From Bugula neritina (taxonomy: Eukaryota > Animalia > Bryozoa), in assembly GCA_964035545.1 (NCBI GenBank), contig OZ037767.1, positions 17,171,781 through 17,235,780 of the forward strand: DNA of 64,000 bases. The letters run 5' to 3'. The notes beneath the pieces were generated by a model, which saw only the letters and a list, made by a program, of their open reading frames with translations, searched no databases and had not been told where the DNA came from. Below, one piece after another: positions 960 to 54,489 of this stretch. A program made the position numbers and the translations under genes. Numbering within the stretch: position 1 is the stretch's first letter; every line of letters begins with the position of its first letter.

Positions 960-2795
960 TGTAGTTATAGTGTGCTTGTAAACATAAATAGCTTCAATAC
1001 TATATAATATATTATAAATAGAAGTAAAGTAATTATAAGATATATGCATATATTATAATGTGTTATTTTACTTATAATATTTAAACATTTGTGATGTCAC
1101 AAATTTACCTGAAATTAGAGCTTCTTCACCTGAGATTGCTTAGCCAGTATCTACACAGCCTCTTTCTGACTATACTTTGTTGCTGTCAGTTTCCCAGCTG
1201 GTACTCTGCACCTAGTCTATAGTATAGCTGAGTAACACATCACCTAGATATATTCAAGTCTGTATTATACGCTATACAAAAGATACTCAAATTTTTTTTC
1301 ATGGTATAAATACGAATGTAAAGGTTTTAGAAAAAGGCAGTCTGCCTTATCACAAATATCTTCATGTTGAATAGAAATATATTAGTTACATAAGTTCCCG
1401 TTACAAGTTCACAAGATAGAAAACTATTGATTTATATGAATGCATAAGGAGAGATGAATACAAAGTATCAATTTTTAGCCTATTGTCCATCCTTTTCTCT
1501 ACACTTTGACTACTGAGAGCGTACTTTAAGATCCCATTACATTTAATATAGCCTACATCAATGATTAACTGACAAATGGTTCTACACAAAGCTATAGTAA
1601 TTGAACTCAGGGCATGTTTAAAGCCAAAACAAATGAGATGTTTACATATAGTGATTGCCATTATAACTACTGGCCTAAATATTGGATAAAATTCCCTGAA
1701 TCTCCTATTTGACTCTTCAAGTTTATGTCATGTTTTATTTGTGAATTTTTACCTGCAATTAGAAAGTTTAAGCAGATGATATTAAACAAGTAAATGCCAA
1801 TATAATAAGTAATTTTCTTTGTGGAAATCTCAACCCAGTCATCTGATTTGAGTTTATGCTTGTGCCAATAAAACACATAATTGATTATATTTATGCTAAA
1901 TTTTTAAAATTGATGGTTAATAATCTAAGATATTCATTTTATTTTGCCATAAAAATGATTAAAATTGCAGTCTAAAAAAGATGACAAAGTGTAAAAGTGT
2001 ACTTCACTGTTTTTCTTTTACATTCTACTTTATAAGGCTAATACGCACAAGTTGAGGCCATGCTATAACTTGTGCACTAAAATCAGCTCTCAATTTTTAG
2101 CATAACCCCATATACTGTTCTATTCACACCTTGACCTTGACCTTGACTATTGTATGCATATAAACATGGGTATTGATTATAGCAGGTCTCATAGTATAAA
2201 CCACCGATGTATGATAATAGCTAGAATAATAAACCCAGCTATATTATTGTATGTAATAAATACAGCAGACAGCTGGTTGAAACAATCACAGAAAGTAGTA
2301 CAATAATAAGTCTCTATTCTTCAATAACAAAAATAATTTCACTGACTAACAAAACAACACAGCATATTATGCAACTATATAGATACAAGATATGATAAAT
2401 CCATAACATGTATATATATATTGATTATATACTATATTATTACACTATATCACTAAATACATCCCTAAACTATTAGTTGTCTTGTAGATATTTATAGTAT
2501 TAATAGTAAACTCTGTACACTTGGTGATACATTCAGATCATGTGACTAAAGAGCAGACGACTCTCTGGGTTTGAAGGAAACTTTGAATTCTCCTGGAAAT
2601 CTGATGAGTCCGTAGACATCAGGTTTGACATCCCCGGAAAGGCTGACCTTGAACTTCTGCAGAATAGCTGTGAGAAAGAGGAAGATTTGCCACTGGCTGA
2701 CAGTTTGACCTAGACACGACCTCACACCTGCAACACACAGACAGACGGTACAGGAGTGTACACTGTTTACCTCCTCAGGAGTGTACGCTGTCTAC
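960..2795 (-). repeat. Inverted segmental duplication of the CYP last intron end, last exon, 3' UTR and downstream DNA (partner ~14100-15625)
   Basis: Block ~960-1270 matches the reverse complement of ~15330-15625. Block ~2130-2795 matches the reverse complement of ~14100-14800. Homology ends at (CA)n/(CCA)n microsatellites at ~2800-2855. Confidence 0.85.
2546..2727 (-). pseudogene. Isolated inverted copy of the CYP terminal exon (VRSCLGQ...PRESSAL*)
   Basis: The reverse complement matches 14226-14407 at 172 of 182 nt, with an intact TTGCAG acceptor and TAG stop. No upstream CYP exons were seen on the minus strand between 2800 and 7500. Confidence 0.85.
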
Positions 2796-10600: not shown

Positions 10601-13600
10601 TGTGGGAAATGCAACTGTAAATTTTAGTCTAGCTGTTTTGACTCAGCGATTTTGTGTCTCTATTTCACAACATTAAATTCTTTCAGTTGGCAACTTTCCA
10701 AAGCTTTAAAGTTTAATTTGTCAACATTTCTGCAAGGCATTAGACCGTTTCAGAGAAATATATTGATTAATAGGATATAAATAACTTTGTTATTATAAAT
10801 TTATTTGAAATATTTAAAATCTTTAGCTTATACTGTCAAAAACAATTCCGTGTATTTCAGGAAATGCCCTGGGAATTCTGGGACAGCCCCTGCACGTAAC
10901 GTTTGCACAGTTGCAGAAGAAATATGGTGAGATATTTGCGCTGAAAGTGGCGGGAGTTGAGGTGGTAGTGGTAAATGGGTATGAGAACATACGAGAGGTG
11001 CTGGTGCATCAGAGCAAGAAGTTCAGTGGCCGGCCCAACATAACCTGGACCAGTCTCACTCAGAAACACGGTGAGTGTGGGTACTACTCAGTAAGTGTGA
11101 GTACTACTCAGTCACTAAGTACTACTCAGTCAGTGTGAGTACTACTCGGTCAGTGTGAGTACTACTCAGTCAGTGTGAGTACTACTCAGTCGGTGTGAGT
11201 GTTTGACTGTGAAATATAAGAGATGATTTAGAAATGGTATCCAATGTTCCACCAGTTATTCACAGCAACAGCTGAATAAAATACTCTGCAACTAAGCATT
11301 ACGTGTGAAACATGCAGATGCTTGCCATAAAGAATGTAAATCACAAGTTAGCACTGCTTGTGATTGTCATGCCATCATACCCAAACGTGTTGGTTGTTAC
11401 CAACCTCACTGTTGTATATAGTAAACTCATGTGGCTGTATATAGTATACTCATGTTGCTGTATATAGTATACTCACATTGCTGTATATTGTACGTCATGT
11501 GGTTGTTCCTACAGGCATATTCAGCTGCGAAGGTAAAACCTTCTCCACGCAGAAGACAATGGTGAGGAAAATGCTGGCAGAGGTGAACTGGGACGACGAA
11601 GACGCGGCTGAGAAGAGAATACAGAGTATAGGTAGAGACCTGGTGGCCTGGCTGGGAGAGACAGGTGTGTACCGAGGACTACCTGGTGTATTGTATTGTG
11701 TGTGGAGTTTCTCTCTCTATGCAATATCTGTGGGAGAAGATAACTACTGTTGTAAATTGTGATTACAAGATATTTTAGTCTAGAGTAGGATTTATTACTC
11801 ATCAAGTTGAGGCATGGTGTGTAGGAGTTGTGTCCCCTACTAACTTGTACTCTGTTCACACAAGGTAAGCCTGTGGACCCGCAGATCTACCTCGACACAG
11901 CCGTCTGCAACGTGACCAGCGGCCCGCTCATGTCCATCACATTCAAGCCGACCGATGATCTCATGCTAGCCGTCTCCAAGATCGCCATGGACATATTCAT
12001 AGACGCCGGGGCACAGAACGTCAACAACTACTTCACTTTCCTTCGGTAACTATATTTCTCTCCTTTTGCCTGCCTGTCTGTCTATGTCTGTCTGTGTGTC
12101 TATGTCTGTCTGTGTGTCGGCTACTATGTCAGTTACCACGGATACGTGTGTTTACAGTGATATCCCGGGAGACCCGACCAACTACCACGTGCTGATGAAG
12201 AACGCCGGCACAGCTATGGATGTTCTCTCAGGAGTTATCACCTCTCACAAAGAGAAGATGGTGGAAAACCCTTCATCTCCCCCAGCTGACTTCATAGACC
12301 ACTACCTGCACACGATGCAGTCGGGCACTGAACCTACCTGCACAGGTAAACGCTTCTCTTCTCTCTTAAGAATTACATGGTTGAGGAGAAAACATTATCG
12401 TAAAGTTTACCTTCTTCTTGACTTGGATGTTGTGGGTTTAGTCTAAGATTTTACACAACTTGACAGTGTAATGACAAAACCAGCTGAGGACATTTAGCTA
12501 TTCATTCTAACATACATGTGTTTCAGCACCTTGTAGTTGATACAACCTAAACTTGACCTCTCAATGACCTTGGCTTTTGGTATTCACGCGTTTCTAGTTC
12601 ACAACTAATGACATCACGGAATAAAATTTGCATGCATTTTTGATATGGCGTAGTAACTATACATACGGAGTTTTCCCCTCTTCATTGCAGATGCACAGCT
12701 ATTGGCTGTAGTGACAGACTTGTTTGCTATGGGTATTGAGGCTACAGCCACGATGCTAAGGTGGGCTCTACTCCTGCTCTCTCAACGCCCCCAGGTTCAA
12801 GCTAGAATACAGGTTAGAGATTAAATTGAGAGTTTTGTTTTCTTAACAAGATGAGACAACTTTACTGTGACAAAACTTAATTTCTCTATGTGTGACTGTA
12901 TTTCAATTGCAATGGTTGAACTGAAAGGTGAAGGTTGAGTGGGCATGATTATATAGCAATAGTTTTCTTTACTGCTAACAGCATCTACCATCTCATATAT
13001 ACGTCTGCACCTCATCTATACGTCTGCATCTCATATATACGTCTGCTGCTGCCATATCTCAGGGTTCAGGTTATAATAGACTTTTCCCCGTGTAGAAAGA
13101 GATTGATGAGGTTATGGGTAAGACGACCCCGTCCCTCGCTCATCAGCCAGAAATGAATTTCACAAACTCGGCTATCACAGAAATAAAGAGATATGTTAAC
13201 TTAGTCAGCATCAACCTCCCCCACGCTGCCACCGAAGATGCCATATTTCAAGGTGTGTCTTTCTTCTGCGTGTAAATAACTTCAAATCAATACAGAAATA
13301 TTGACTATTGATTTTCAGTTTGCTTTCTTTCAATATCTTTGCACCTTTTTCCAACCCTACTAAATTGAAACCTCAACCCGGGAGCGTCACAAACATCCTG
13401 ACTGCTGTATAGTCCTCAGGCTAAAGTTGCATTGCGAAGTATTATTTCATGAAGCCTGTGTTCTTATTTTAGGATACTTCATCCCAAAGGGAGCTGTGGT
13501 ACTGCCCAACCTTGCCTCTATCCATTACGACGAAGAAACTTATGCTGAGCCAATGACCTTCAAACCCGACAGATTTATTGAAGGCGGATCTTTCCAGAAG

Positions 13601-14407
13601 CCTAAGAAGTTCATGCCATACTCCGCAGGTAACGTATTATATATATTACTACTCCGCAGGTAAACTATTATATATATTACTACTCTGCAGGTAAACTCTC
13701 CTATATATTACTACTCCGCAGGTAAACTCTCCTATATATTACTACTCCGCAGGTAAACTCTCCTATATATTACTACTCCGCAGGTAAACTCTCCTATATA
13801 TTACTACTCCGCAGGTAAACTCTCCTATATATTACTACTCCGCAGGTAAACTCTCCTATATATTGCTACTCCGCAGGTAAACTCTCCTATATATTGCTAC
13901 TCCGCAGGTAAACTCTCCTATATATCTCTATTCAAGAGAACACGACTCTCTGTTTATGCTTAATAAAATACATCTTGATGCCACGCTGCCTCGAGTCAGC
14001 AGCCCAACTCTGTTTGTTATTCATGTCCTGTTCAAGTGCTGCCTCTTCTCTCTGACAGCGTGTCTCAAGACAGCTCAGCTGCCATCTCATGAATATTCAG
14101 CGTATACACTCCTGGGGGGTCGACAGCGTACACTCCTGGGGGGGTCGACAGCGTATACACTCCTGGGGGGGTCGACAGCGTACACTCCTGAGACACGTCA
14201 GCAAAACTCTGTCTGTGTGTTGCAGGTGTGAGGTCGTGTCTAGGTCAAACCGTCAGCCAGTGGCAGATCTTTCTCTTCCTCACTGCTATTCTGCAGAAGT
14301 TCAACATCAGCCTCTCCGGGGACGTCAAACCTGATGTCTACGGACTCATCAGATTTCCAGGAGAATTTAAAGTTTCCTTCAAACCCAGAGAGTCGTCTGC
14401 TCTTTAG
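7660..14407 (+). CDS. Cytochrome P450, CYP2 clan, 496 aa. Exons: 7660-7677, 8835-8961, 10861-11070, 11515-11664, 11865-12045, 12158-12345, 12691-12812, 13096-13252, 13473-13628, 14226-14407
   Basis: Phase-consistent GT-AG exons totalling 1491 nt. N-terminal anchor plus PPGPFPMPLIGN, KKYGEIF, DFIDHYL, EIKR (ExxR), FKPDRF (PERF) and the heme motif PYSAGVRSCLG. Exon 1 is the least certain. Confidence 0.92.
13615..13925 (+). repeat. 31-bp minisatellite (~10 units) made of the exon 9/intron 9 junction (CTACTCCGCAG|GTAAACTCTCCTATATATTA)
   Basis: Directly visible; the first unit contains the real donor site. Confidence 0.92.
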
Positions 14408-19280: not shown

Positions 19281-22200
19281 ATGGCAGGAAATGCAGACGA
19301 GGAAGCTAGCTCTGAGAAAATAGAACTGTATGAGGCCTACTGGATCCAGAATACCACCGCCCACGGGTGTTCCAGACTGGCAAATACTGCCAAGTTTCAG
19401 AGATTCGTCTGGGTTCTTGCCTTACTGAGTGAGTCTATGAGTGAGTCTATGAGTGAGTGTGTAACTGAGTGTGTAACTGAGTGTGTAACTGAGTGTGTAA
19501 CTGAGTGTGTAACTGAGTGTATAACTGAGTGTGTAACTGAGTGTGTAACTGAGTGTGTAACTGAGTGTGTAACTTGATTAAAATTGGTTTGCAAAACTTA
19601 TGCTTAGTGAACCTAATCAAGAGTTCAAGGTTTTTATACATTAATGGGTTTATATTTTGCTGCTGAAAGTTTTGCAGATTTTTACCAGTAAACCACCTGC
19701 TTTCACCTGTCACTTGTTCAATCTGTCAAAACAACTGACAGCAGGTGCTCTCTCTCCATAGTCTATATTCATAGTATAGGTTGATGACTTGCTAAGTAGT
19801 GCATCCACAGCAATGATTATGGAGTAACACACCAGTACTGTAGTACTTCCCGGTGTCATTTTATATAGAATAGCTGTATTTGATATAATTTTGCTTAAAC
19901 ACCAAGCTTTGCTTATAGTTTATACGGCACAATTGTACACACCCACTCAAAACTTAGACATCTATGTTGGGTTAAAATATAATATTTTGTTTTCCACTGC
20001 CACATACCTACTCTAGTTTATTATAAGTTTGTTTGTAAAATTCAATACAATTTGGTTCACATCACTGCGCCAGTAAAATTAGACAGCTAGAGATAGAAAT
20101 GACTTGAGGTTGGCCAAGCTCACACCTTGAGGTTAAAAAGCATTTATATAAACTGCATAATACAGTTTTACCTGCTGAATTACAACTTTTATAAGTTCAA
20201 TGATTTGTCTATCGATCTCAGTTATCACTCAGTGTTAGATGTTTATATTACATATAAATGTTTTTGTTTAAAACTTTAATTAATCTGCTGTAAAACATGC
20301 TGAATACCATGTTACAAGGTCAGTAAACCAAGTGTAACTATATACGTGTATGTTTGATGTACATTTAAATTGTACATTAAAAAGCAATTGTTTCATCGGA
20401 AAGAAAAAACTTCAAACTGTATTTATATTGTAGCTTGCTTTGTGTACGTCTCCATTGAGGTCTACAACAGCTTTGACTTCTACTATCAGTATCTCACCAC
20501 AACAGAGATCAATAAAATCAATAAGCCAGAGATTCCATTTCCTGCTGTAACCATCTGCAACTTCAACAGGTGAGAAACTCACCACTTGTGGTTCTTCATT
20601 GCATAATACCTTATTCATGCTTATACATGCTTATACCACCTTATTCATGTTTATACATGCTTATAATACTTTATCTATGCTTATATATGCTTATGTATGC
20701 TTATACCACCTCAATCATGTTTATAAACGATTATGCAACCTTATATATGCTTACACATACTTATACATGGTTACGATACCTTATACATTGCTATTCATGC
20801 TTATTTATGCCTATTCATGATTTTCAGCCTGTATCTACATTTATTGAGGGTTATTTATCTAATCATGAGTATATTTCGCTTTAAAGTACTTACACAAAAC
20901 GCAGGGTTTAAACAATTCCCAGTGGTTAAAAAACCATCGCTAATTTCAATGGAAGGTTTCGCTTTCCTATGGCAGGTTTCAGCAATTGCTGACAGCTCAA
21001 TAAGTTTTACACAGTATTAGCAGCAGAAGACATTATCAACGGTTTCTAACAAGAATGTCAAGAAAAACTTAAAGAGTTATTTCTGCTAGTAACACTAATT
21101 CTTCTAGCGTCATTTTTATACAAGTCTTCACCAGGGAAGGTACTAAAAATTGCGTCTAGTCTACATGTCATTACTATAAATAGCACCATTTGTTATAATT
21201 CAGTGAGTTATCCTTTTATGTTAAATTAAGTACAAAGTAAATGGCATACATGTAGGAGTTGTGAATATGCATACGTGTGATTCATATTGGGATACTGCAC
21301 TAAATAGCTGAAAGCACAACTTCCACACTGTTACAACAGTGTAGTGAAGTTTTGTGTTATAAATAGGAAATACATTATTATTGAGATTTTCTTCACAGTT
21401 GAGTTAAGAGTCATAGAGAGGTGAACCAATCAATAAGTGACACAACGAGTTGGTAATTATACACTTCGATACTCCATATTCTGTCCTCGAGGATTCCCAG
21501 AGGTGCTAATTTTGAGTGTAAACATGTTTGACTTTACATGCACTACGGACACACTTATGCATATTCATAAATATAATCTCGCTCGTCACACATCTGTAGA
21601 CGGAGTAAAGGGGATAAGCACCGGATGTGCTGTATTCATTAATATACTTATGATAACCTTAGCAAAGTTCTTACCAGTTTCAGTTTCAACACCCATGCGC
21701 TTTAAAACTGCACTAGTGGTAGTTAAACATGTTGTATTTTAGTTGGTTTATGGGCTATGTAATTAGTTGTTTTAGTGAATGAAGAAGCTACCACTATAAC
21801 GTTACACTTATTTTATATCATAAAGTTAATACTGTAGCATTACACTGACAATGTACCATAGAGTTGACACTGTAGCGCTACACTTGCATTGTGTGATAGG
21901 CTTAACACTATAGCATTACACTGATAGAGTTAATATTGTAGCATTACACTTCCTTTGTGTAAAAGAATTACTACTGCAGCAATGCACTTCCTTTGTGTGA
22001 TAGAGTTAACACTTTAGTGGTACACTTGTTCAGGTGGCGGAAGTCTCACTTGGATGAAGACACGGTGGAGCAGTTGAAGGGAATCGTTGCCCTCTACAGT
22101 TACGACTACGTCATCCCTGACCTTGACACCAACGAAGAGAATCTAGATGAAGTGCTTAGCAGTGAGTTACTCTCTCTTGCTATGTTCTTAGGCTATAACT

Positions 22201-25200
22201 AAGGCTATAAATACACCTTGACCTAGCACTGACCTTGAGACAGGCACACGCCCAGTATTGTTACTTTGCTGTGATATATTCTTGTTTACATCAAAGTTTA
22301 TGTTTATAGTAATAAGTTTAAAACATGCAAAATCTCGAAAAAGTTTTCGTTTTAATAATTCTAAGCCGAAAGCATACAAGAAGCTCTTGTGAGATATAAT
22401 ATAATATAGCATAGCACATAATATAATGCAATATATTATAATTTAGCATGGCATATAATATAATGCAATATAATATAATATAATGTAACATAATATAAAT
22501 AGAGTGAATGTAATGTAATGTTATATAATATATAATATAATAGAATGTAACATAATATAATATAATATAATATAACATATTATAATATAATATAATATAA
22601 TATGATATAATATGATATAATATAATAAAATATAATATAATATAATATAATATAATATAATATACCGTAAGAAAAGCGAAGTGTTACTCTCGCCTCGTGT
22701 TATCGCATACAGATATACTTCCAACTGCAAAACCGGTACGTGTGGAGACAACAACTACCACAGCCCCACCGGTAGAATGTGTCCTTCCACCCACACCTCT
22801 CGGCATCACGTATGAGGTCGAAAGTGAGTTGACCAATCAGAGCACAGTGCTAGTTGGCAGCACAATCAGATACGTCTGCACTGTGTCCTACATGGTGTTG
22901 AGGGACGGAGATGAGGTGCATATCTGTACAGAGAGCGGACAATTCCAGGGAAAAGTTCCGATGTGTGTAGACTGTGAGTATATTATAGAGTTTAGAGTAT
23001 GGGGGTATAATGTGCCACCCTTAGGTTATGTGTCGTACTACGGCCCTGAGTTTATTTGATATGTCGATATTTTATTCTTAAATCCAACTTCAGTTTAAAT
23101 TTCATTTTATAGATATTATATTTGCTATGTAATAGATAATGTACAATATAGGGAGCAGCCATACACTAGGGGTTAGAGCATTTGCCTAATAAACACAATT
23201 AGGTCATGGGTTCAAACCCCAACAAAAGCCGTTAAGGTGATGTTAGGAAGAGCATCCTGTCATCATTGCTTCTGTGCCTCATGTGAATAAGTCCTTAGGC
23301 TTATTTAACAAAAACCCTTTCCATCAGGGATTTTCTCACAGGGATAGTGACTATAAACTTGCGTGAGTTTTTGTTATATAATTGATATGTATAATAGTTG
23401 ACATTTGAAATATAGTGTACATAGTATATGTAATGTTATATATTGCAAATGAAACATATAATATATAAAAATATATTACAACATACAACTTATAACATAT
23501 AAAAATATATATTATATAAACTAGAGCTTTGAAATCCCGTATATATACCTAATTTCCTAGTTGAAGAGGCGGGGGAGCGATACACAATAGCCAATAACAA
23601 GTCAGATCCTGAGGCTATGGCTGTTTCCACCACTGTGGCTACAGAATACAACAGCCAGCCTCTCAGTGACATGACTCTGTGCTTCTGGATAAGGAGTAGT
23701 GCGGGCAGTACGCTGGGCACCGTAATCTCCTACGGGGTTGGGGGTAAGTTCACAGGCTATGAAGAGTTATGGAAGCATTTCCTGGCGTATGCTTCATGAG
23801 AGAGTTTCACTATTTGCTCACCATGTCAAACTCATGGGAAAGCGATTCTAAAACAACACTATGCACCCACTCTATGCATTCACATAATATACAATATGGC
23901 TGTATGATATTAGTTATTAGTGTTTGACTATAAGATTCTATATATATTATGTTATTTAAACTTTATACAGTAGGTGGTGTGTAACATGTGGGTTATGTGA
24001 CAATTATAATACAATACAATACAACAAAATGTAAGATTTGTAATACAATGCAGTGTAGTGTAGTGCAGTGTAGTGTAGTGTAGTGCAGTCCAGTGTTATG
24101 CAATGTAATATGTGTTTCATGTATTGTATTGTAGAGGGAGTGTAGTATAATATAATACAATGCATGTATTATTTCATAGTATTAAGTTTACTTGTAGTTA
24201 CTTTCTCTTTGCAGACGATTCGATTCTCTCAGTCATTCAAACTCCCCAGAAGCTCTCTTCAGTCTACGGTCTGAAATATAAACTCTTTGGTATAGAAGGT
24301 AGAGCTATTACACTGACTAGCTACGGTCAGTGGAACCCCTTTTGCCTGCATTACTCGACTGGAGATGCTGGATCTAAGGTACTAAGTCTTTCTTGTAGAC
24401 TGTGAACTGTTCACTTAAACTCTATCATACAAACTAGTATGTGTTAATTTAGTAGAGATGTCTTCTCTTCGTAGAGTTGTGCTTCTTTAGTGAAGTTGTT
24501 TTCTCTTGTTACACTCACACAAAACAAAGATTCTCCAAGTAGCTAATACTTACTGCTCTAAGTTGTAATAACTAAATTATATTCATTTTAAGGTGCTTCA
24601 ACTTGAGCATCCGTATATAATTTCTTTTTTTTCCTTCTGCACAAATTTGTTGTCTTTGTATGAAAGTTTTTACGCTTGAAGTTATCTTCTCTCTAAGCAT
24701 TGTGTTTTTTATTATTTGTGCTTAAAGTGTCTATTTTCGGCGCTGTCTTTACTTTCTAACTAATTTATACATTTCGTTTATAAGCAATGCTACCTTTTGC
24801 ACTACATTTCACCAGCTGTTGCATTTACTTTTATTGTAGCAGTATTTTATCTTTTGCTATATTGCCGTTATTTGCTCTGCAATTTTTACTTATTCAGTTC
24901 CAGGCATCTCTCCAGGTACTGTATATACAACGTATAGACTAGCGTCTTAACATTGTAAACTATATTAAGTTCTTGTCACCATGATGTCTACGTTCACTCA
25001 CATTCAACAACTAATCTGAGCTTTGTAGGCATCATTGTAATTATTAGTCAATAACATCTACTAAATTTCTGATTGCTTTCATATGAAAGTTGATATATAA
25101 TTGTTAGTTGCCTTCAGGTAGACTGGCCTAACAAATTAGCAGCAAAGGGATAGCTGTTAGTGTAGCTCTGTTGTAAAAGTACCTCCCCAAAACAAAACTC

Positions 25201-28200
25201 TTCATTGTTGTATGTTGCTAGCATCCGATCTAAGAATGACGCAGCTGTCTGTATAAGAAATGAGTGTATTTTCTTATCTCAGAGGATGAAACTGTGTGCA
25301 ACCTGTGGATTAATGTTTGTTTACAACAAAACATTTCTTATAAAGTTTAACGAGTTTCAACTATTGCACATATGATCAGATGAGGCTGTTTTTGAAAAGT
25401 GTCAATCAAAGAATTAATACCATTGTTTCAGTTTGAATATAAATATACATGGTGCTCTATTTCATTAGAACCCTAACAACAAAGTTGAGTTAAATCAGGC
25501 GAAACATCTATATGGAAATTTATTTACAGCTTTACAAGTTTCTTGTATTTGAAAACGGAGAAAATGGATTCCACCTTTACGGTGATGATGACATCAGAGG
25601 GACAAGTCATCAAGAGTTTCCTTTGGGTGGAAAGTTGGTGCTGCTCAACGAGTATGAGAATTATATCAACTTGAGAGGTAAATATTCGAGTACACATGTA
25701 TCGTTATTACAGGAAACTGTTTGGTTTATGTAACACTGAGTTCAGACAATAGTCCTTGTGGTGTAATGGTTAGTGCGCCTGCAGCGTGCAAGCTGGAGGT
25801 CTTGGGTTCGAATCTCAGGTGGGGCAAAAGTCTTACAGTTTAAAATTCAATTGTAATTTGCAAGAACTACTGTTTTTTCTTATTCTTTTTTTATTTGTCT
25901 TTCATTTGACCTTTTTCCTGATTGCTTATCCACAATAGGCTGTAACCACGGATATGTCATGTGAACAGAGTGTATAACCCTCCAAGCAGATTTTCAGAAT
26001 ATGACTTAAAAGTTATTTTGATTTTAGAGAATAGAGAGTTGAGTCAAGTCTCCTCAGGCGCTGAGGTAGCCAATGTGAACCTGTGGTCAAGAATTATTCC
26101 TATAGAAGTGATGGACAAGATGCTATGGTACGGGAACGTGTACACCATGCTCCCATCTACAATTGCCAAGCTGTATGGATCCCTGGACCATGAAATTGCT
26201 GTATATAACGTTTCTGGTAAGCAACATTCTTTTCAGTCATAGTGTAGTTTAGCTGCTTCAACCAAACATCAAATGAATTGATGATTCATGAACAGAAAGC
26301 GACTTTATTTTCTCCACCTTTTAAACCAAACAACTTGATGAGATTATGTAACTCAGCTGACTTCCTATTGTCTTACTCGTGTGTCAATATGATTTCAGTG
26401 AGTCAAACCTCAGCTGTGACAACTTTATACAATGGTAAGACAACCACTTTGTAGCAGATATAGTTTGTTCACATTAATGGAAGTTGTCATTTCTTTTTCT
26501 GTGCGAATTGTATTTAGAAGTTGCCTTCTTTGCTTTTAAAGCTTCAACTACTTACGTTTTTTAATACATGCATAGCTTTCCTTGTTATTATAGCTTTATA
26601 TATTTTAGCTTGTTATATGCTGCACATTATGAAACCACTAGAGCTGGCGTAAAAACTATAGCTATACATATTTTAAACACTCGGTGCTTTAAACATATTG
26701 CTTTAAAAACCTAACACGTGCTTTTTAGAGGGGTGAAGAGCAATCCACCCCTGAAAATCACAGTACTGCCTCAAACACAATGTTAACCATTTTTTGGGTT
26801 ACCTAGTAAGTAGAGTGTTCTATCTGTATAATTACTTATTGACTTACTAGTTCTATAATATAAATATATATATAATATAATACAATATTACAGTATATAA
26901 TGTTATAATATAGAGTAATGCATTATATTGTAATGATTATGATGAGATATTAAACACAGATTTAATATTTGAATATAGGAAGTGTACAGATTGGTGAGTA
27001 TAAGACTCTCTTTGTCACTCATTTGACAAATACATATGACCTTGACACTGGGATAGTTGAGTTACTTTAATATGATTGGTTCACAGAAAGGCGTATAATT
27101 CTCTAATTTCCACATAATTATATGGCTTATAAGCTAAGGTTCTTCTATTTCTATTAAAGCTTCAGTTTAAAACACCACATACTTACTTCACAAGCATTTC
27201 ACGTATTTTGGAGAAAATCTATCGTTTTCATTACTTTCCTTATAAAAGCTTTAAAAACAATTTCCTTGATTCATTTTTCATAAAATTTCCTGTAGCTTGT
27301 TAATTATCTATAATATTCAAAAATAAACAATGGGAATATAATTTCCCAATCTGCTTCTAAAACTTTCGCTGTCGATAAAATAGCCTCTGCTTCATTCATC
27401 TGTCTCTTTCTACACACTATACATCTGGCTAGTATATGGCTCAGGGGATCAAAGGCTATGTTAATACAACAACCTAAATTTGGTAGCAAGAGTACATGTC
27501 TGGTACAAAGCCCTCTCTTTCCCCATTGCAGCTTATTATTATTATATTATAGTTATATAGTGTGGCTACTGGCTATCATAAAATACTAGTATTTATTCTT
27601 CCTTGCGAATTACTAAATAACAATGTTACTATACACATTTACAGAAACTGGTGTGCTACGAGTGAGAAGAAATGAGCTTATCACATCGATCAGCTCTACC
27701 ACTTCTGTTACCGCGTCAACTGCTCCACACCTGAACACAACAGGTGGATCTGCACTAAACGCTACGGCCGACTTTGCAGTTACCAGTACACCCTACTTGG
27801 GCAATACTACATCTTACATGGGCAACAGCACTTACATGGGCAACACTACTACTGATTCTGTCAACGGTACTACTGACGCTGTCAATGGCACGGCTGACAC
27901 TGTAAACAGCACGATGAGCAGCTCCAACATCACCAATAGCAACGATACGTCAGCTGATAACACGACAACAACCACTGAGCAGACGCCATTCAACTACGCT
28001 GATTTCACGAGGACTGCTGGCTGGCAACTGGTGGATGAGAAGTCGGGACATGATGGAACGGAGCGAAAGACTTTACTCTCTTGTACGTACAGAGGAAGGA
28101 AATGTGACTCTAGGGTGAGAAGCTAAAGCTATAAGTGTATGATCATTTTGAAAAAGTAAATTTGCAGCATGCCAGAGATCTTTAGGCCTACTGTGATTTG

Positions 28201-31200
28201 GAGTATATACCTGAAAAATAATGATTTTATAACATTGAAAGTCGGGAAAACTATTTGTTACAAGGCTTTTAATTCATAGTAACTCATGCATAATGCTTAG
28301 TAACAGAGGCTAAGTAAAGGCAAGTGGAATTTCAATTTACTAGTTTGCAGTGCTAAGCTTTACCAGATAGCATAACTCTGTTGCCTTGTCTGTAGCCCAT
28401 GTCTTCATTGTAGTGGTTCACCCACAGATAGTATAACTCTGTTGCCTTGTCTGTAGCCCATGTCTTCATTGTAGTGGTTCACCCACAGATTTGGAGCTTA
28501 TGGCAACTGTTATACTTTCAATCAAGACATACCTGAATCTTTAGCTAAAGAGGAAGGATTCTCCTTGCCAATAATACAGGATAATGCTGGACCAACCGGG
28601 GGTCTGAATATGCTACTTGACGTACAAACCGTAAGTCTAACTTGTACAAACTGTAAGTCTAACTTGTACAAGCTGTAAGTTCAAGTCCACGACTTGACAC
28701 ACTTAAATTACCTTAATGTATTGGCTATACTTAGTAAAGTGTTTTACTCTTAGACTTTCTACTTTGTTCTAATCTAGATTTTACTATATTATACCTCTGC
28801 ATGTAAACAAAATTGGTTTGAGAAGTTGAAATGAAAAGAAGTAACATGAATAGCTTAAAGATTGAATGTTGATAATTTTTCTGTGCCCTTTTATACTTAT
28901 ATATTACTATTATAATATTAATTTTATTATAATATTATTAACAAGTAATAATATGTCTTTATATTTACACCATGTGTTTTTTCATAACGTAAACTTCTTG
29001 CATTTTATTGTTTAGTTTGAGTACGCGGAAAGTACTGTCCTCAATGGGAACAGTGAACTAGGGCTAAAGTTTATTATTCACGCTCCATATGAGGTTCCAG
29101 TCATCAATTCCATGGGGTATGCCGTTGGCCCAGGACAGAAAGCTTTTGTCGGCTTTGATAAAACTATTGTAAGTTGTTTAACCTCTGTGTGCACAATCAC
29201 ACTGCATAATTTTATTACCTCGGACTCCATATTGAAATATTATTGAGCAGCTCTGCTCAAATCTCCATAAGTTTCTATGGTATCGTGCTTCTTCAGACTT
29301 TTTACAATAGTAGTAATATAAAAGTACTAGAATTTTCTAATTGCTGTAAAACTGCTACGGATGTTGCACTCATTGTTATAGCTCAACAACTTAGAAGAAC
29401 CGTGGGGGCGCTGTAAAAATAAGAGACTTAAATATTTTGAGAAATACACAGAGAGTAGCTGCGCATTGGAATGTAAGCTAGATAGAGTTGTGTCCTCCTG
29501 CCTCTGCAAGCCCTATTACTATCCCGGGGATTTTGACATTTGTACTTTTGACCAGCTGTATCAGTGTGCCTATCACGAGATTGGTAAAATTCTTGTCAAC
29601 GTGCCGTTGAATCGTTGTGTCTATTATTTATCTCCCCCCCTTGTGAACTCTATAGGCACCCCCAATCCTTAATATGTTGATTTTATCCCTGATTGATAGC
29701 TTATAAAATTATTACCTTTTTGTTTTCCTGTAAACACAAAACTCAAAGTAGAATCGTGCAGCAATAACGGTTAGGATTTCTCAGTCTACAGGGACGCTGT
29801 GGTCTGCTCCCTCAACCAAGAGTAGATTGCCTGAGTTCTCATGTTTGATGTTGTCACCAGGTGTCGAACTTAGAGAAGCCGTGGGGGAAGTGCAATGAGA
29901 GCAGACAGCTGATATACAACCTGAACTACACGTTAGAGGGATGTGCTGTTGAATGCCGTCTCGAGAAAGTAGTAGCAGCCTGCGGCTGTAAACCGTACTA
30001 CTATCCCGGAGACTTTGATATCTGTTCGCTAGATCAGCTAGAAAAGTGTGCATTCATTGAAATTGGTAAAGTGTTCTTTATTGTCTCTGCTCAAGGCACA
30101 TTATGAAACTTTGAACAGTAGTATTCAATTAATGAAAAAAGTGTTATTGAAACATTTGGCACTATATTAGTACCAGTTATAATAGAAACAATCTTTTAAA
30201 TAAAACAAATTAGTAAGTTTGGGTAGACACAAACAGTAACAATAATAATGAATGGTGATACTTCATAACCAATTAACATTTCGCGGATATTTATTTGTGG
30301 ATCTTCAGACCAGCAGACATACAACTCAGGCTAAATTGAGATTTAGCAAACCAAGTTGTTATTTATTTTATGTGTGAAAAAAAATTAAGATCCTCAACCT
30401 GATTCTATTTGTTAATACTGATGATTCCAACCCTCAGATTCTTCCACGAGTTACATTAAATGTTTATTTGTATCCTTCTTTCAGTTTATTTGCAGGCGTG
30501 ATGATTTTTTTTATTTTGACAGTTGTAAAAAGTAAATGGATTTTTAAAACCTTGTGAAAACTGCATTTGACTATTTTGCAGATGTGATACTATTGATCCA
30601 AAAACATAATTTTTGAGTCAAGACTCATTATTGTGCAGCAACATTCCGTTGCTGTTTGATACAATATTCTTTTGTGTTATAGCAAAGGTCAACGCTGACT
30701 TCAGTGAGCTGTGTGACTGTCCTATAGCGTGTATGTCTGAGGATTATGACGTGAAGCTGTCCTACACGACATTTCCGAACAGACCTTACGGCTTCCAGCT
30801 GGGGGAGGACCTCAACATAACTCTACCGAGATTTACTCCCGGCACAGTTGCATATGAGAACACCTATCAGTACATCAAGTATGGTTTACTTTCTTCAACA
30901 GACAGTCTCTTGCTAAAGCCCTGCTTTTATTATTAGAGTTTATTGCTCTTGAAATCTTTAATCTTAGAAGAGCTATGTTTGTTATACCAGCTGTGTTTAT
31001 TGGCAACAGTGCTTGTATATTTGAGATGTGCTGAAATTGTTACAGAGGGAATGTTATAAACCTGGACATGTATTTTGAGAAAATGTTGGAGACTGAAATG
31101 AAGCAGAATAAAGCAATGGACATCACGGCTCTACTTGGTAAGTGTTTCTGTCTGCTGTAGGTAAGTCTCTAGTATAGGTTATAGACTATCCTGTATTTTG

Positions 31201-31700
31201 CTGTAGCCTATGTTGGTTCCCTTATATATAATCTTCATGCTGGTTGAATTCATGCAAAAAGGATTAGTTTTTCTCGCATTACAAAGGCGTCAGGTGGCAG
31301 AAAACGTAGTTCCCTAATGATTGAATTGAACAGAACCATTGAATTAGTTGCAACAGCTGTATGTGTGCTGCAAGCACACGGCTTGATTAAGGTTAGCATA
31401 CTGTATTGATAGAGTTTTATCTATTGTGCAGGTAGTGTTGGCGGACAGCTTGGGCTATTCATAGGGTGCTCCTTCCTCACAGCCTTTGAGTTCCTTGAGT
31501 GTATAGTGATGAGTACTCTGTACCACTGCAAGAGGAGACGACTAGCAAAGGCTCGTAAAAAGAAGAGAGAACAAGCCGCAGCTCACCAACTCGAGTACGG
31601 CCTTTACACTCCCAGATACAGCTCTGAGTTGAACAAAAACAATAGTAACAACAATGGCGGATTGTCTGCGGCCATTTCACAGCAACCTTTAGTGTGGTGA
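19281..31700 (+). CDS. DEG/ENaC (ASIC-like) channel subunit with sushi, pentraxin and mucin-like insert, 964/965 aa. Exons: 19281-19428, 20434-20569, 22034-22161, 22713-22973, 23561-23743, 24215-24378, 25530-25677, 26028-26216, 27645-28114, 28475-28630, 29016-29168, [29382-29583 OR 29861-30065], 30683-30878, 31046-31137, 31432-31700
   Basis: TTAHG pre-TM1 motif, TM1, PFPAVTICNFN, YGNCYTFN, Cys-rich thumb, CDCPIAC, and TM2 ALLGSVGGQLGLFIGCSFLTAFEFLE. All junctions are GT-AG and phase-compatible (2895 or 2898 nt). Confidence 0.93.
19429..19575 (+). repeat. 12-bp minisatellite (GAGTGTGTAACT) starting at the first coding-exon donor
   Basis: Directly visible. Confidence 0.9.
23152..23371 (+). mobile_element. 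tRNA-derived SINE, family A (intronic copy)
   Basis: A-box/B-box-like head (GGGTTCAAACCC) and a body shared with 33181-33400 and 40109-40322, ending GACTATAAACTTG.GTGAGTTT. Confidence 0.85.
25751..25826 (+). repeat. tRNA-like dispersed repeat, family B
   Basis: TGGTGTAATGGTTAG (A box) and GGTTCGAATC (B box), poorly paired stems; 4 copies in the window. Confidence 0.75.
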
Positions 31701-33178: not shown

Positions 33179-33400
33179 ACAGAGCAGTCGTGGTCTAGGA
33201 GTGAGAGCGTTTGCTTTGTGAACAAGAAGTCGTGGGTTCGAACCTTGACAAAGGCCATTGGTCATGTTAAGAAGAGGATCCAGTCATAATTGCCCCTGTG
33301 CCTCATTTAAATAAGTCTTTAGCCCGCTTTAACAAAAACCCTTTCCATCAGGGGTTTCTCACAGCGATACCGACTATAAACTTGGGTGAGTGCGTGAGTT
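33179..33400 (+). mobile_element. tRNA-derived SINE, family A, with 18-bp target-site duplication
   Basis: TATTTTATATCTGCTGTT at 33161-33178 and 33401-33418; B box GGTTCGAAC. Confidence 0.9.
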
Positions 33401-36258: not shown

Positions 36259-39200
36259 ATGGCGTCCATGTTTAGCGGACCGCTGACTCTTACAGATCTA
36301 GATGACTTCATAGCTCCCTCTCAGGAATGCATTAAACCTGTAAAGGTAGACAGAGTGCCTGGCGCATTCAAGAAATCTGGAGTTATTAAAATCGGTAAGA
36401 TTTTGTCAGTTTATTCAGCAGCATATGACTCATACACACAGCGTGTCAGCTTGTAAGTGTGACTACTTCCTGTAGATGATGACGGCGCTTACTCGGCTCT
36501 CAATGATGTCGGAGAAAGTTACAAACTGGAGAAAGTGTCTATAACTCTCAACGACTGTCTGGCCTGTAGTGGCTGCATCACGTCAGCGGAGTCTGTCCTC
36601 ATCACCCAGCAAAGTCAGCATGAAGTACGTCTAGTGTATACTACAGTAATAGTATGTTCTGTCTAGTGTATACTACAGTAATAGTATGTTCTGTGTAGTG
36701 TATACTACAGTAATAGTATGTTCTGTCTAGTGTATACTACAGTAATAGTGTGTTCTGTCTAGTGTATACTACAATGGCAAAAGAGAAAGGTGTGGGAGGC
36801 GTGGCTAGTAGCCTATGTAGGTGTGGCTAGTTGTCAATAAGAAGTTATACCAACACTGACTTTGTTGTAAGCTGATATACATTTACTTTGTCTGGAAGGT
36901 GAACAGAGCGTTATCAGAGAACAAGACTTGTGACATAGAGAATAGAAAGTTGATGGTGATCAGCATATCTCCACAATCTAGAGCCTCTCTTGCAGCTAAA
37001 TATAGCCTGAGTGTAGAAGAGACTGCGGGGCGGTTCACCACTTACCTTCACAGTATCGGTATGTATCTTAGGTTTGTAGCTACGAGTATGTGTGATGATA
37101 CTGGCAGTAGAATCACAGCTAAGGGAAGTTTTCTCTAAAACCTGCATACATTGACCCCTAAGGCTAATTATTTAGGGTTTGACTTGGTCCTAGACACCAC
37201 TGTCAGTAGAGAACTTAGTCTACTGGAGACGTGCAAGGAGTTTATAAGCAGGAAAGAGAAATATGACAAGGGAGATAAATCTTCACTTCCTATGCTCACC
37301 GGGATATGCCCAGGTGCGTTGCGACTGCATTCTATTTGCTAGAGATCGTGTTATTAGTGTCCGCGCTGTAGACATCATGTTGTGTCGACAGGCTGGGTGT
37401 GCTATGCTGAGAAGAGTCACGGGGAATACATCCTTCCTTATATCAGCAGCGTGAAGTCACCTCAGCAGATGATGGGCAGCATAGTGAAGGTACAGTAAGC
37501 TTTCTCTATACACAGTATTACTATGTCGTCTGCTATACACAGTATTACTATGTCGTCTGCTATACACAGTATTACTATGTCGTCTGCTATACACAGTATT
37601 ACTATGTCGTCTGCTCTACACAGTATTACTATGTCGTCTGCTATACACAGTATTACTATGTCGTCTGCTATACACAGTATTACTATGTAGTCTGCTATAC
37701 ACAGTATTACTATGTAGTCTGCTACACACAGTATTACTATGTCGTCTGCTCTACACAGTATTACTATGTCGTTTGCTATACACAGTATTACTATGTCGTC
37801 TGCTATACACAGTATTACTATGTCGTCTGCTATACACAGTATTACTATGTCGTCTGCTATACACAGTATTACTATGTCGTCTGCTATACACAGTATTACT
37901 ATGTCGTCTGCTATACACAGTATTACTATGTCGTCTGCTATACACAGTATTACTATGTCGTCTGCTATACACAGTATTACTATGTCGTCTGCTATACACA
38001 GTATTACTATGTTGTCTGCTATACACAGTATTACTATGTCGTCTGCTATACACAGTATTACTATGTCGTCTGCTATACACAGTATTACTATGTCGTCTGC
38101 TATACACAGTATTACTATGTCGTCTGCTATACACAGTATTACTATGTAGTCTGCTATACACAGTATTACTATGTCGTCTGCTATACACAGTATTACTATG
38201 TCGTCTGCTATACACAGTATTACTATGTCGTCTGTTATACACAGTATTACTATGTCGTCTGCTATACACAGTATTACTATGTCGTCTGCTACACACAGTA
38301 TTACTATGTAGTCTGCTATACACAGTATTACTATGTCGTCTGTTATACACAGTATTACTATGTCGTCTGCTATACACAGTATTACTATGTCGTCTGCTAT
38401 ACACAGTATTACTATGTAGTCTGCTATACACAGTATTACTATGTCGTCTGCTATACACAGTATTACTATGTAGTCTGCTATACACAGTATTACTATGTCG
38501 TCTGCTATACACAGTATTACTATGTCGTCTGCTATACACAGTATTACTATGTCGTCTGTTATACACAGTATTACTATGTCGTCTGCTATACACAGTATTA
38601 CTATGTCGTCTGCTACACACAGTATTACTATGTAGTCTGCTATACACAGTATTACTATGTCGTCTGTTATACACAGTATTACTATGTCGTCTGCTATACA
38701 CAGTATTACTATGTCATCTGCTATACACAGTATTACTATGTCGTCTGCTATACACAGTATTACTATGTCGTCTGTTATACACAGTATTACTATGTCGTCT
38801 GCTATACACAGTATTACTATGTCGTCTGCTATACACAGTATTACTATGTCGTCTGCTATACACAGTATTACTATGTCGTCTGCTATACACAGTATTACTA
38901 TGTCGTCTGCTCTACACAGTATTACTATGTCGTCTCTACACACAGTATTACTATGTAGTCTGCTATACACAGTATTACTATGTCGTCTGTTATACACAGT
39001 ATTACTATGTCGTCTGCTATACACAGTATTACTATGTCGTCTGCTATACACAGTATTACTATGTCGTCTGCTATACACAGTATTACTATGTCGTCTGTTA
39101 TACACAGTATTACTATGTCGTCTGCTATACACAGTATTACTATGTCGTCTGCTATACACAGTATTACTATGTCGTCTGCTATACACAGTATTACTATGTA

Positions 39201-40776
39201 GTCTGCTATACACAGTATTACTATGTTGTCTGCTATACACAGTATTACTATGTAGTCTGCTATACACAGTATTACTATGTCGTCTGCTATACACAGTATT
39301 ACTATGTCGTCTGCTATACACAGTATTACTATGTCGTCTGTTATACACAGTATTACTATGTCGTCTGCTATACACAGTATTACTATGCCGTCTGCTATAC
39401 ACAGTATTACTATGTCGTCTGCTATACACAGTATTACTATGTCGTCTCTACACACAGTATTACTATGTAGTCTGCTATACACAGTATTACTATGTAGTCT
39501 GCTATACACAGTATTACTATGTCGTCTGCTATACACAGTATTACTATGTAGTCTGCTATACACAGTATTACTATGTCGTCTGCTATACACAGTATTACCA
39601 TGTAGTCTGCTATACACAGTAGTACTATGTCGTCTGCTATACACAGTATTGCTGTGTCGTCTGTAATCGTCTCACTATTCTTTCCAGAACTTTCTAGCAT
39701 CTCAGAAGTCGCTCCTGCCGAGCCAGATTTACCACGTCACCCTGATGCCGTGCTACGACAAGAAGCTGGAGGCGAGCAGGCCGGACTTCCACAGCAAAGA
39801 GTTTGACTCTCAGGATGTGGACTGCGTCATTACCGCTAGTGAAGTGATAGAAATGATTGAGAGGGAAGGCAGACAACTCCCAGACTATGAGATGAGTCCT
39901 CTGGATAGAATATTTGATGAAGTTCCTACACACGTGTACTCTCATTCTGGGGGTGGCTCAGGTACGTCCCGTAATGCTGTCTTGTCTCTGTATTACCATC
40001 TTTGTATATCTGATATTGTAGAGTATAGTATATACTATATATTACAATAGTTGTGTATAGTATAATATAGTGTACAGTATAAAATAGTATACAGTATAGT
40101 ATACACAAGGAAGCAGCCGTGGTTTAGGGGTTAGAGCGTTGACTTAGTAAACGCAAAGTCATGGGTTTGAACCCCAGTAAAGGCCATTGACGATGTTAGG
40201 AAAAGCATCCAGTCATAATTGCTCCTGTGTCACTTCTAAATAAGTCCTTAGCCTTATTTAACAAACCTTTTTATCCAGGGTTTCTCATAGGGATAGGGAC
40301 TATAAACTTGTGTGAGTTTTTTATATAGTGTAGTATATAGTTCAGTATATAGTATAGCATATAGTATAGTATATAGTATATAGTATAGCATATAGTATAG
40401 TATATAGTATATAGTATAGCATATAGTATAGTATATAGTATAGTATATAGTATAGTATATGGTATCTGAATTACAGGAGGATATCTGGAACATGTATTTC
40501 TACACGCTGCCCGAACCCTCTACAACATCCAGTCTCCCGAGATAGAGTACACGGTGAAGAGGAACAAGGACCTACAGGAAGTCACGCTCACCCTCGCGGG
40601 AGAGAAGAAACTCAAGTTTGCTCTGGCTTACGGCTTCCGGAATATTCAGAATATCGTCCCGAAGATAAAGCAGAGGAGATGTCCGTATGACTTCGTGGAG
40701 GTGATGGCCTGTCCGTCAGGTCAGTTTCCTAACTAGTAGTACTAATAGTAGTATCACTCTGTAGTAGTAGTAGTAC

Positions 40777-40853
<77 letters not shown>

Positions 40854-40948
40854 CTAGTGGCAGTAGTAGTAGTAGTAATAGTAATAGTAGTGGTACTAGT
40901 GGCAGTAGTAGTAGTAGTAATAGTAGTAGTAATAGTGGTACTAGTGGC

Positions 40949-40979
<31 letters not shown>

Positions 40980-40999
40980 ATAGTAGTGGTACTAGTGGC

Positions 41000-41033
<34 letters not shown>

Positions 41034-41604
41034 ATAGTAGTGGTACTAGTGGCAGTAGTAGTAGTAGTAGTAGTAGTAGTAGTCACTGTGTATAGTACTA
41101 CTAGTAGTCACTGTATATAATCGCACTAATAGTATCACCGTATGTAGTAGTACTAGTAGTATCACTATATGTAGTATTACTAATAGTAGTCACTGTATAT
41201 AGTACTACTACTACTATTACTAATAGTAGCAGTAGTAGTAGTAGTCACTGTGTATAGTACTACTAGTAGTCACTGTGTATAGTACTACTAGTAGTCACTG
41301 TGTATAATAGTACTAGTAGTATCACTATATGTACTACTACTACTACTACTAATAGTGACTGTATTATGCAGGATGTCTGAACGGAGGGGGACAAGTCAAG
41401 GTCACGGGGTCAGACGACAGTAAAGACTTATTGAATCGGGTCACTGACCTATATAACACTAGTGAATGTAGGTCACCTGAGGATAGTGTGGTAGCTCAAC
41501 GTCTGTACGATGAGTGGCTGAGTGCGGACAACTCCCACACCCTCCTCACTACTCAGTATCACGCAGTCGAGAAATCTACTAACGCATTGACTATAAAGTG
41601 GTGA
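36259..41604 (+). CDS. CIAO3: Cytosolic iron-sulfur assembly component 3 (NARFL/IOP1/Nar1), 476 aa. Exons: 36259-36394, 36476-36624, 36899-37058, 37176-37313, 37392-37489, 39688-39961, 40477-40719, 41372-41604
   Basis: [98 protein letters not shown]-terminal W. Exons sum to 1431 nt in frame. Confidence 0.97.
37507..39663 (+). repeat. 27-bp minisatellite (~80 units; TATACACAGTATTACTATGTCGTCTGC) filling CIAO3 intron 5
   Basis: Directly visible; produces the spurious repetitive ORFs at 37462-39700. Confidence 0.97.
40109..40322 (+). mobile_element. tRNA-derived SINE, family A (CIAO3 intron)
   Basis: Colinear with the other two copies. Confidence 0.85.
40733..41355 (+). repeat. Compound (TAG)n microsatellite in the last CIAO3 intron
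   Basis: Directly visible. Confidence 0.95.

Positions 41605-43817: not shown

Positions 43818-54489
<10,672 letters not shown>

Follow-up and report, generated by a model that had tools for sequence, protein, structure and literature searches.

Within the DEG/ENaC channels, the finger varies more than any other extracellular region and has a presumed role in controlling the gate by way of the thumb, as set out in portions of PMC6827283. Activation of ENaC by cleavage in the finger, and recognition of peptide there by FaNaC, are described in the accessible part of 10.1101/2023.02.01.526556. Here, we report a DEG/ENaC gene of the bryozoan Bugula neritina in which the finger is interrupted by an insert encoding a sushi (CCP) domain followed by a domain that is likely to be of pentraxin origin. 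The gene lies in a window (the whole stretch of DNA analyzed) of 64,000 nucleotides, corresponding to positions 17,171,781 to 17,235,780 of the forward strand of contig OZ037767.1 in assembly GCA_964035545.1, and positions below count from its first letter. The role we consider most probable for this module, at roughly 45%, is that of a calcium-independent protein-binding or matrix-tethering arm predicted to load the finger–thumb gating interface.

The gene occupies positions 19281-31700 of the plus strand with GT/AG ends on every intron, and the 16-exon model that includes a micro-exon and the second of two thumb exon copies encodes 977 aa with no internal stops. A preliminary description of the window had placed five in-frame exons (945 nt, 315 aa) between the early- and late-finger exons; their coordinates and AG/GT ends were as claimed, and the motifs it quoted are all present in the translations. 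The five exons measure 261 nt (22713-22973), 183 nt (23561-23743), 164 nt (24215-24378), 148 nt (25530-25677) and 189 nt (26028-26216). With them and without the micro-exon the frame is open across 964-965 aa, and a model that skips them is also open (649 aa and a stop). The first is symmetric (phase 1-1) and the whole block is flanked by phase-1 introns, both as previously described, and an origin of the module through phase-1 exon insertion is plausible. In a scan of 16 single exons, PF00858 matched eight and PF00084 matched the exon at 22713, with no relevant Pfam match for P1-P4, E3, E4 or E9. The micro-exon, a furin-type site, a Ser/Thr stalk and the duplicated thumb exon were absent from the preliminary description. 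The exons are listed below together with their support from Pfam, RNA contigs and the Watersipora subatra ortholog (TM1 and TM2, first and second transmembrane segments).

E1, 19281..19428, plus strand: start codon, HG motif (TAHG) and first part of TM1; PF00858 E 0.016, below cut-off when scanned alone.
E2, 20434..20569, plus strand: rest of TM1, beta1/beta2 and FPAVTICN; PF00858 E 4.2e-7.
E3, 22034..22161, plus strand: finger helices a1-a2; ortholog alignment to ASIC1/2 and RNA joints.
S, 22713..22973, plus strand: Pro/Thr linker and sushi (CCP) domain, Cys160/193/209/222, phase 1-1; Pfam, and RNA joints on both sides.
P1, 23561..23743, plus strand: first strands of the pentraxin-like domain (MTLCFW, GTVISY), Cys265; joint 22973^23561.
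P2, 24215..24378, plus strand: pentraxin-like domain (QWNPFC), Cys329; 53% identical to Watersipora, RNA contig coverage.
P3, 25530..25677, plus strand: pentraxin-like domain (GGKLVLLNEYEN), degenerate calcium segment.
P4, 26028..26216, plus strand: end of the pentraxin-like domain (VANVNLWSR, GNVY); joint 25677^26028 and a weak collinear NPTX1/2 match.
m1, 26399..26434, plus strand: 36-nt micro-exon, phase 1-1; joint 26216^26399 in runs X1 and X2.
E4, 27645..28114, plus strand: RVRR (aa 470-473), 105-aa Ser/Thr stalk, finger a3 and LLSCTY; RNA contig coverage.
E5, 28475..28630, plus strand: beta-ball, YGNCYTFN; PF00858 and joint 28114^28475.
E6, 29016..29168, plus strand: palm/beta-ball; PF00858, 86% identical to Watersipora, RNA joint.
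E7a, 29382..29583, plus strand: thumb exon copy 1, phase 0-1; PF00858 E 8.2e-9.
E7b, 29861..30065, plus strand: thumb exon copy 2, phase 0-1; the copy spliced in RNA contigs.
E8, 30683..30878, plus strand: thumb end, palm and knuckle; Pfam scan and RNA contigs.
E9, 31046..31137, plus strand: palm strands and start of TM2; 70% identical to Watersipora, joint near 30878^31046.
E10, 31432..31700, plus strand: TM2 with the GCS filter motif, basic tail and stop codon.

In order to establish whether these exons are read as one message, three read runs were compared with the window in one alignment, two of them from one sample labeled RNA-Seq (X1 and X2) and a third (X3). None of the three is registered as RNA; the RNA status of X1 and X2 is presumed from the library label, and we relied on GT..AG joints that X3 lacks, with 15 of 58 joints listed. 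At about 6% exon divergence from the window, X1 and X2 derive from a close relative (about 94% identical). Both contain the joints 20569^22034, 22161^22713, 22973^23561, 25677^26028, 26216^26399 and 28114^28475, none of which occurs in X3. E3 is thus joined directly to S in both RNA-labeled runs, at the junction the preliminary description had predicted for a single chimeric channel mRNA. Its second junction, 26216^27645, did not hold, as the actual joint, 26216^26399, leads into the micro-exon m1 between the block and E4. The acceptor of m1 comes from this joint and its end from a GT donor and contig size arithmetic, which also provides the P1^P2, P2^P3 and m1^E4 joints. The series from E1 through m1 to the start of E4 accounts exactly for an X2 contig of 1734 nt: it contains E1, E2, E3 and S, and its remaining 749 letters equal P1+P2+P3+P4+36+29, the added terms reflecting the micro-exon at 26399-26434 and a 30-letter overlap into E4. 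A second micro-exon guessed near 26980 was dropped, as the RNA contig sizes left no room for it. Additionally, the E4 contigs of X1 and X2 begin at G 27644, which fits m1 or intron sequence and not E3, which ends in A. E1 is covered by a spliced contig starting at 19231.

No block-skipping joint was found among the 15 of 58 joints listed, and the evidence points to constitutive inclusion of the insert; a rare skipped isoform is possible, as contigs drop rare forms. The earlier suggestion that the block can be inserted or skipped in frame stands for the reading frame, but skipping itself has so far found no support. Codon differences, read from 40 of 336 rows (39 of them coding), amounted to 13 silent and 6 changed codons between S, P1 and P2 and the RNA relative (13/19 synonymous) and to 14 silent and 4 changed codons in the flanking exons, a ratio that fits purifying selection on both.

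Several side observations accompany these reads. A spliced contig extends 262 letters upstream of an acceptor near 19233, implying at least one untranslated 5' exon, for which a candidate donor lies near 18247. X1 contigs run on into the following introns from m1 (26405-26696) and E7a (29382-29742) and may reflect RNA before splicing, DNA, or alternative 3' ends that yield short products lacking TM2. Interspersed repeats are located at about 23160-23375, 25750-25830 and 33190-33400; the one in the S-P1 intron shows very high contig depth and resembles the copy near 33200, and the repeat near 25750 has, on visual inspection, a tRNA-like appearance.

With the thumb exon as query, two candidates yielded one protein, XP_067941758.1 of Watersipora subatra (941 aa), which RefSeq lists as an 'uncharacterized protein'. 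Its isoforms XP_067941757.1-759.1 all harbor the insert (3/3), and their only differences are of 9 and 21 residues behind the module. The order of parts is the same as in the window protein, namely TM1, early finger, sushi, pentraxin-like domain, polybasic site(s), Ser/Thr stretch and the remainder of the channel, the insert exons being 30-53% and E5-E9 56-86% identical. The Watersipora protein differs in having two polybasic sites versus one in the window and one thumb segment in the three annotated isoforms. Its record names no domains, and the precomputed Pfam annotation lists PF00858 only. A whole-protein search, word-based and weak, gave five matches among 7436 candidates with the insert in Watersipora only; the sushi exon alone retrieved no homolog (0/75 candidates), and a whole-protein Atlas search gave no usable match. 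HMMER with the insert as query identified 42 matches among 1.84 billion proteins, including a fragment from Bugula neritina that spans P3-P4 (P0008, E 3.4e-21), exon-sized pieces of unnamed proteins (five for S, four for P1, four for P2 and six for P4), multi-sushi proteins and one true pentraxin protein (P0026). Three of the exon-sized pieces are near-identical to the window and the others 35-64% identical; the pieces show several divergent members with similar exon ends, not all of which need be joined to a channel.

The channel core appears complete around the insert. PF00858 matches on both sides of it, and matches the Watersipora protein with 281.9 bits in two stretches. Hydrophobic stretches lie at aa 39-63 and 886-916 of the window protein, which carries TAHG at aa 26, FPAVTICN at aa 85, thumb cysteines at 735-809 and a GLFIGCS filter; the HG, FPxVTxCN, thumb cysteine and GxS motifs are thus intact. 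Alignment of the ortholog with ASIC1 and ASIC2 extends as far as the last residues of finger helix a2 (query 143, chicken 140); with chicken ASIC1 it restarts at query 566 and chicken 160. The insertion therefore lies in the finger, as proposed in the preliminary description, and more specifically between helices a2 and a3. Measured from FPxVTxCN to GNCYTFN, this region is 537 aa long in the window protein and 490-511 aa long in Watersipora, compared to 94-95 aa in three ordinary relatives. Five proton-sensing residues, H73, D78, K211, E411 and E416, are named in the available portion of PMC9949801. Read through the ortholog–chicken ASIC1 and window–ortholog alignments in rat ASIC1a numbering, these positions hold T, N, N/S, E and T/V (1/5 kept), and with four of five residues replaced ASIC-type proton gating is unlikely.

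The sushi assignment of exon 22713-22973 was confirmed by two lines of evidence. PF00084 scored 24.7 bits against a cut-off of 20.7 on the window exon, which has the four cysteines; on other copies it gave 14.7 bits for Watersipora, below cut-off, and 23 bits for a fragment (P0022). The model of the ortholog domain had a predicted local distance difference test score (pLDDT) mostly of 70-85 across residues 1-60, apart from one block at 59, and the top rows of a fold search with it were CCP-containing chains (best Z 8.2-8.4; root-mean-square deviation 1.8 Å over 62 residues for E-selectin). On the basis of the Pfam score above cut-off and the CCP fold of the ortholog's predicted model, we regard a sushi/CCP domain in S as proven.

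For P1-P4, the sequence comparisons make a pentraxin origin probable. P1 scored 22.6-22.8 bits against two pentraxin domains, a value reached by 0/2000 shuffles, and a global profile alignment to pentraxins covered 183 columns with probability 66.5 and a score of 31.2, compared to at most 20.7 in 30 shuffles. Atlas features gave 0.95 to PF00354 clusters, and 10/10 of the best family matches fell in the pentraxin/LamG clan. The true pentraxin protein among the HMMER matches, a hemichordate protein with five pentraxin domains, was found at E 6.7e-7 among 1.84 billion proteins. When a pentraxin-free profile was searched against PDB sequences, the two best matches were NPTX2 (E 0.0054) and NPTX1 (E 0.015); a single-sequence search gave the same two at E 0.083 and 0.15 in two collinear stretches, behind a sialidase module at E 0.034. 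The cysteine pair (Cys265/Cys329 sites) is kept in 6/6 and 5/5 covering rows. It lies on strands that we take to carry the pentraxin cysteine signature, TxCxW and HxCxTW, a motif also present in P0026; the HxCxTW signature is reduced to PFCxxY here. As noted earlier, the calcium segment is degenerate: QEQD, present in both aligned pentraxins, reads NEYE, NSYQ and NEYE in 3/3 rows.

Other results count against a pentraxin domain. Significant similarity is limited to the first 64 residues: 55 and 119 of 2000 shuffles scored at least as well as the C-terminal 170 residues, and the profile score falls to -0.3 without the first 60 columns. The Atlas matches share 138-145 of 256 features, fewer than the 170 typical for the same family, and no match to PF00354 or PF13385 was obtained with the four exons, with the Watersipora protein or with its domain in isolation. 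Two AlphaFold runs gave a pLDDT below 50 for most of the domain; the second leaned to a pentraxin fold because its alignment included two true pentraxins and was of low confidence nonetheless, so its fold matches (best Z 3.1, best Foldseek E 0.31) are meaningless. Pentraxin matches at E 1e-29 were circular, as the profile held true pentraxins, and were left unused. The earlier pentraxin/LamG claim is likely, with significant similarity in the first 64 residues and a kept cysteine pair but no support from Pfam or from the fold models, which failed twice.

Behind the module, an R-x-K/R-R site is present in 3/3 sequences covering the spot (RVRR in the window, RSKR and RVKR, 18 residues apart, in Watersipora, and RVKR in P0008) and nowhere else in the two full proteins. 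The 105-aa stretch following RVRR is 43% Ser+Thr with 11 N-glycosylation sequons. A DEG/ENaC protein of Macrobrachium rosenbergii (P0006, 911 aa) likewise has a Thr/Ser-rich region of about 400 aa and an RKKR before the core, and gave no sushi or pentraxin match; since this unrelated protein has both, a stalk with a polybasic site is not unique by itself.

The coupling of DEG/ENaC channels to extracellular tethers or protein ligands has long been an open question, and the locus offers a candidate for such a tether or recognition module within the gating finger itself. By the family rule, three arms would be displayed per trimer. After a single cut at RVRR, the Pro/Thr linker would still hold the sushi–pentraxin unit to the TM1-side fragment and the glycosylated stalk would stay with the TM2-side fragment, converting a closed loop into a free arm; with no site upstream, the module should stay attached through the TM1-side fragment. 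The arm would bind protein, and not a calcium-dependent sugar ligand, and binding could be transmitted to the gate by a pull or load on the finger–thumb interface. Because the exons are phase-symmetric and removable, the tether model is testable by one deletion construct. In a fuller version, which is possible but rather doubtful, exon shuffling in a bryozoan lineage would have produced a direct adhesion-to-current transducer whose furin-freed arms bind matrix, substrate or a partner cell and gate the pore, in effect a mechanosensor with its own tether or a receptor for a protein ligand, tuned by micro-exons at the base of the arm and by mutually exclusive thumb exons. The gene also shows that the finger tolerates an additional 400-440 residues or so, including one or more folded domains, and the relatives point to an orphan receptor-channel family with several divergent members. 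Weighing against the tethering arm, the polybasic tract of human delta-ENaC is uncut according to the accessible part of 10.1101/2020.10.19.344341. The RNA evidence, moreover, is one sample of a relative and not of this individual, and an added domain can act in targeting while leaving the gate unaffected.

That last point is the core of the strongest rival, in which the module only anchors, clusters or traffics the channel and another stimulus gates it. The sushi pair of GABA-B1a reportedly acts in targeting and neuronal pentraxins are said to act in clustering; sushi domains on the GABA-B1a receptor ectodomain are listed among the fold matches, neuronal pentraxins are the closest solved sequence matches, and flexible linkers on either side could decouple the module from the gate. 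However, the insertion is in the finger, adjoining the gating interface as portions of PMC6827283 present it, and a protease-type site is conserved behind the module. We consider this explanation somewhat unlikely.

Cleavage itself could be the purpose, with the insert acting as an autoinhibitory lid released at polybasic sites in a convergent ENaC-like switch. The presence of such finger sites in 3/3 sequences agrees with this, and the two Watersipora sites could free a peptide in the manner of the double cut in the ENaC gating relief of inhibition by proteolysis (GRIP) tract (10.1101/2020.10.19.344341, in part). Nevertheless, the window protein has one site where ENaC needs two, according to the same portion of that source, the stretch separating the two Watersipora sites has no conserved counterpart in the window, and shedding of the module would require a site before the sushi domain, where there is none. 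This makes the switch improbable.

Still less probable is a calcium-dependent lectin or pattern receptor that binds microbial or matrix glycans like CRP/SAP and opens the channel. The pentraxin-like ancestry would suit it, as would the two acidic residues kept in the window and P0008 (NEYE), but Watersipora reads NSYQ, so the acidic ligands are not conserved, and QEQD is lost in 3/3.

A non-conducting adhesion protein using the DEG/ENaC scaffold as a trimeric stalk might be suspected from an insert making up over 40% of the chain and from S or N at the ASIC position that we presume to be D433. We find this hardly credible, as the HG motif, GxS filter, TM2 and thumb cysteines are intact and E5-E9 are better conserved with Watersipora than the insert (56-86% versus 30-53%). 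Finally, a nested gene, optional cassette or annotation artifact, to which the phase-symmetric block, the open skip model and the examination of 15 of 58 joints lend some room, is rejected for practical purposes: no joint from 22161 directly to 27645 is among those 15, both RNA-labeled runs have direct E3 joints to S, one contig crosses the block, E4 contigs start on G 27644 whereas E3 ends in A, and all three Watersipora isoforms carry the insert.

Two further features of the gene lie downstream of the insert. E7a and E7b both have intact frame, cysteines and splice sites; silent sites between them are saturated (proportion of silent differences, pS, 0.88; of nonsynonymous differences, pN, 0.27), marking an old duplication under purifying selection. 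They are predicted to be mutually exclusive on the basis of phase, because both together break the frame. No spliced E7a was found among the joints listed, and the E7a contig begins at its acceptor and continues into the intron. A 61-nt tandem duplication at 28363-28484 spans the E5 acceptor; the upstream copy (28414), if used, would introduce a stop at codon 627. In the RNA relative the joint is at 28475, and X3 contigs break at the duplication, which may be a real allele or an assembly artifact.

Elsewhere in the window, cytochrome P450 exons lie at 10827-14404 (plus strand) and 2549-2791 (minus strand), and the peptide at the end of 2549-2791 is almost identical to that of 14192-14404, which suggests two duplicated genes in inverted orientation. 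A NARF/CIAO3-like gene with iron-only hydrogenase-like domains occupies 36860-41601 (plus strand) and holds a long short-period tandem array at about 37400-39660 in an intron. Ankyrin-repeat exons of one or two genes are located at 46777-62412 (plus strand), and a retrotransposon-like open reading frame fragment at 2-640 (plus strand; zf-RVT E 1.2e-4, below cut-off).

Judged by titles and abstract openings, we found no description of a sushi–pentraxin DEG/ENaC architecture in the literature, where subscription journals, InterPro tables and supplement rows of PMC9949801 may hold one, and the RefSeq entries are 'uncharacterized'. Motif searches in those supplement rows, which are cut and gapped, gave 0 matches, and a Membranipora member may still be among the eight 'Mmem' entries there. 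The architecture is deposited in RefSeq but unnamed and is a variant within the known DEG/ENaC family. Sushi domains of complement regulators and GABA-B1a share the sushi fold with the insert, and the pentraxin domains of NPTX1/2, SVEP1-like proteins and adhesion GPCRs (G protein-coupled receptors) share its N-terminal strands, cysteine pair and collinear motifs; none of these proteins is an ion channel. Compared to these pentraxin domains, the insert shows about 20% identity, an insertion of about 20 residues after the second cysteine and no QEQD, and the SVEP1-like match (P0043) has its pentraxin domain placed after EGF repeats and ahead of the main sushi array. ASIC1 and ASIC2, the best PDB sequence matches (E 1e-55), have the channel core, HG, FPxVTxCN, thumb cysteines and GxS in common with the window protein, which differs in the finger insert of about 400-440 residues and in keeping only E411 of the five residues. 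FaNaC, a weaker match to the ortholog (E 1e-28 to 1e-16), likewise recognizes its ligand in the finger region, according to the accessible part of 10.1101/2023.02.01.526556, but through finger-helix residues and not appended folded domains. The GRIP tract of ENaC alpha and gamma is likewise an extra finger-region segment with furin-type sites, described as unique to ENaC subunits, and it frees an inhibitory tract by a double cut. Unlike GRIP, the insert described here consists of mobile extracellular modules, and the window protein has a single site, downstream of them.

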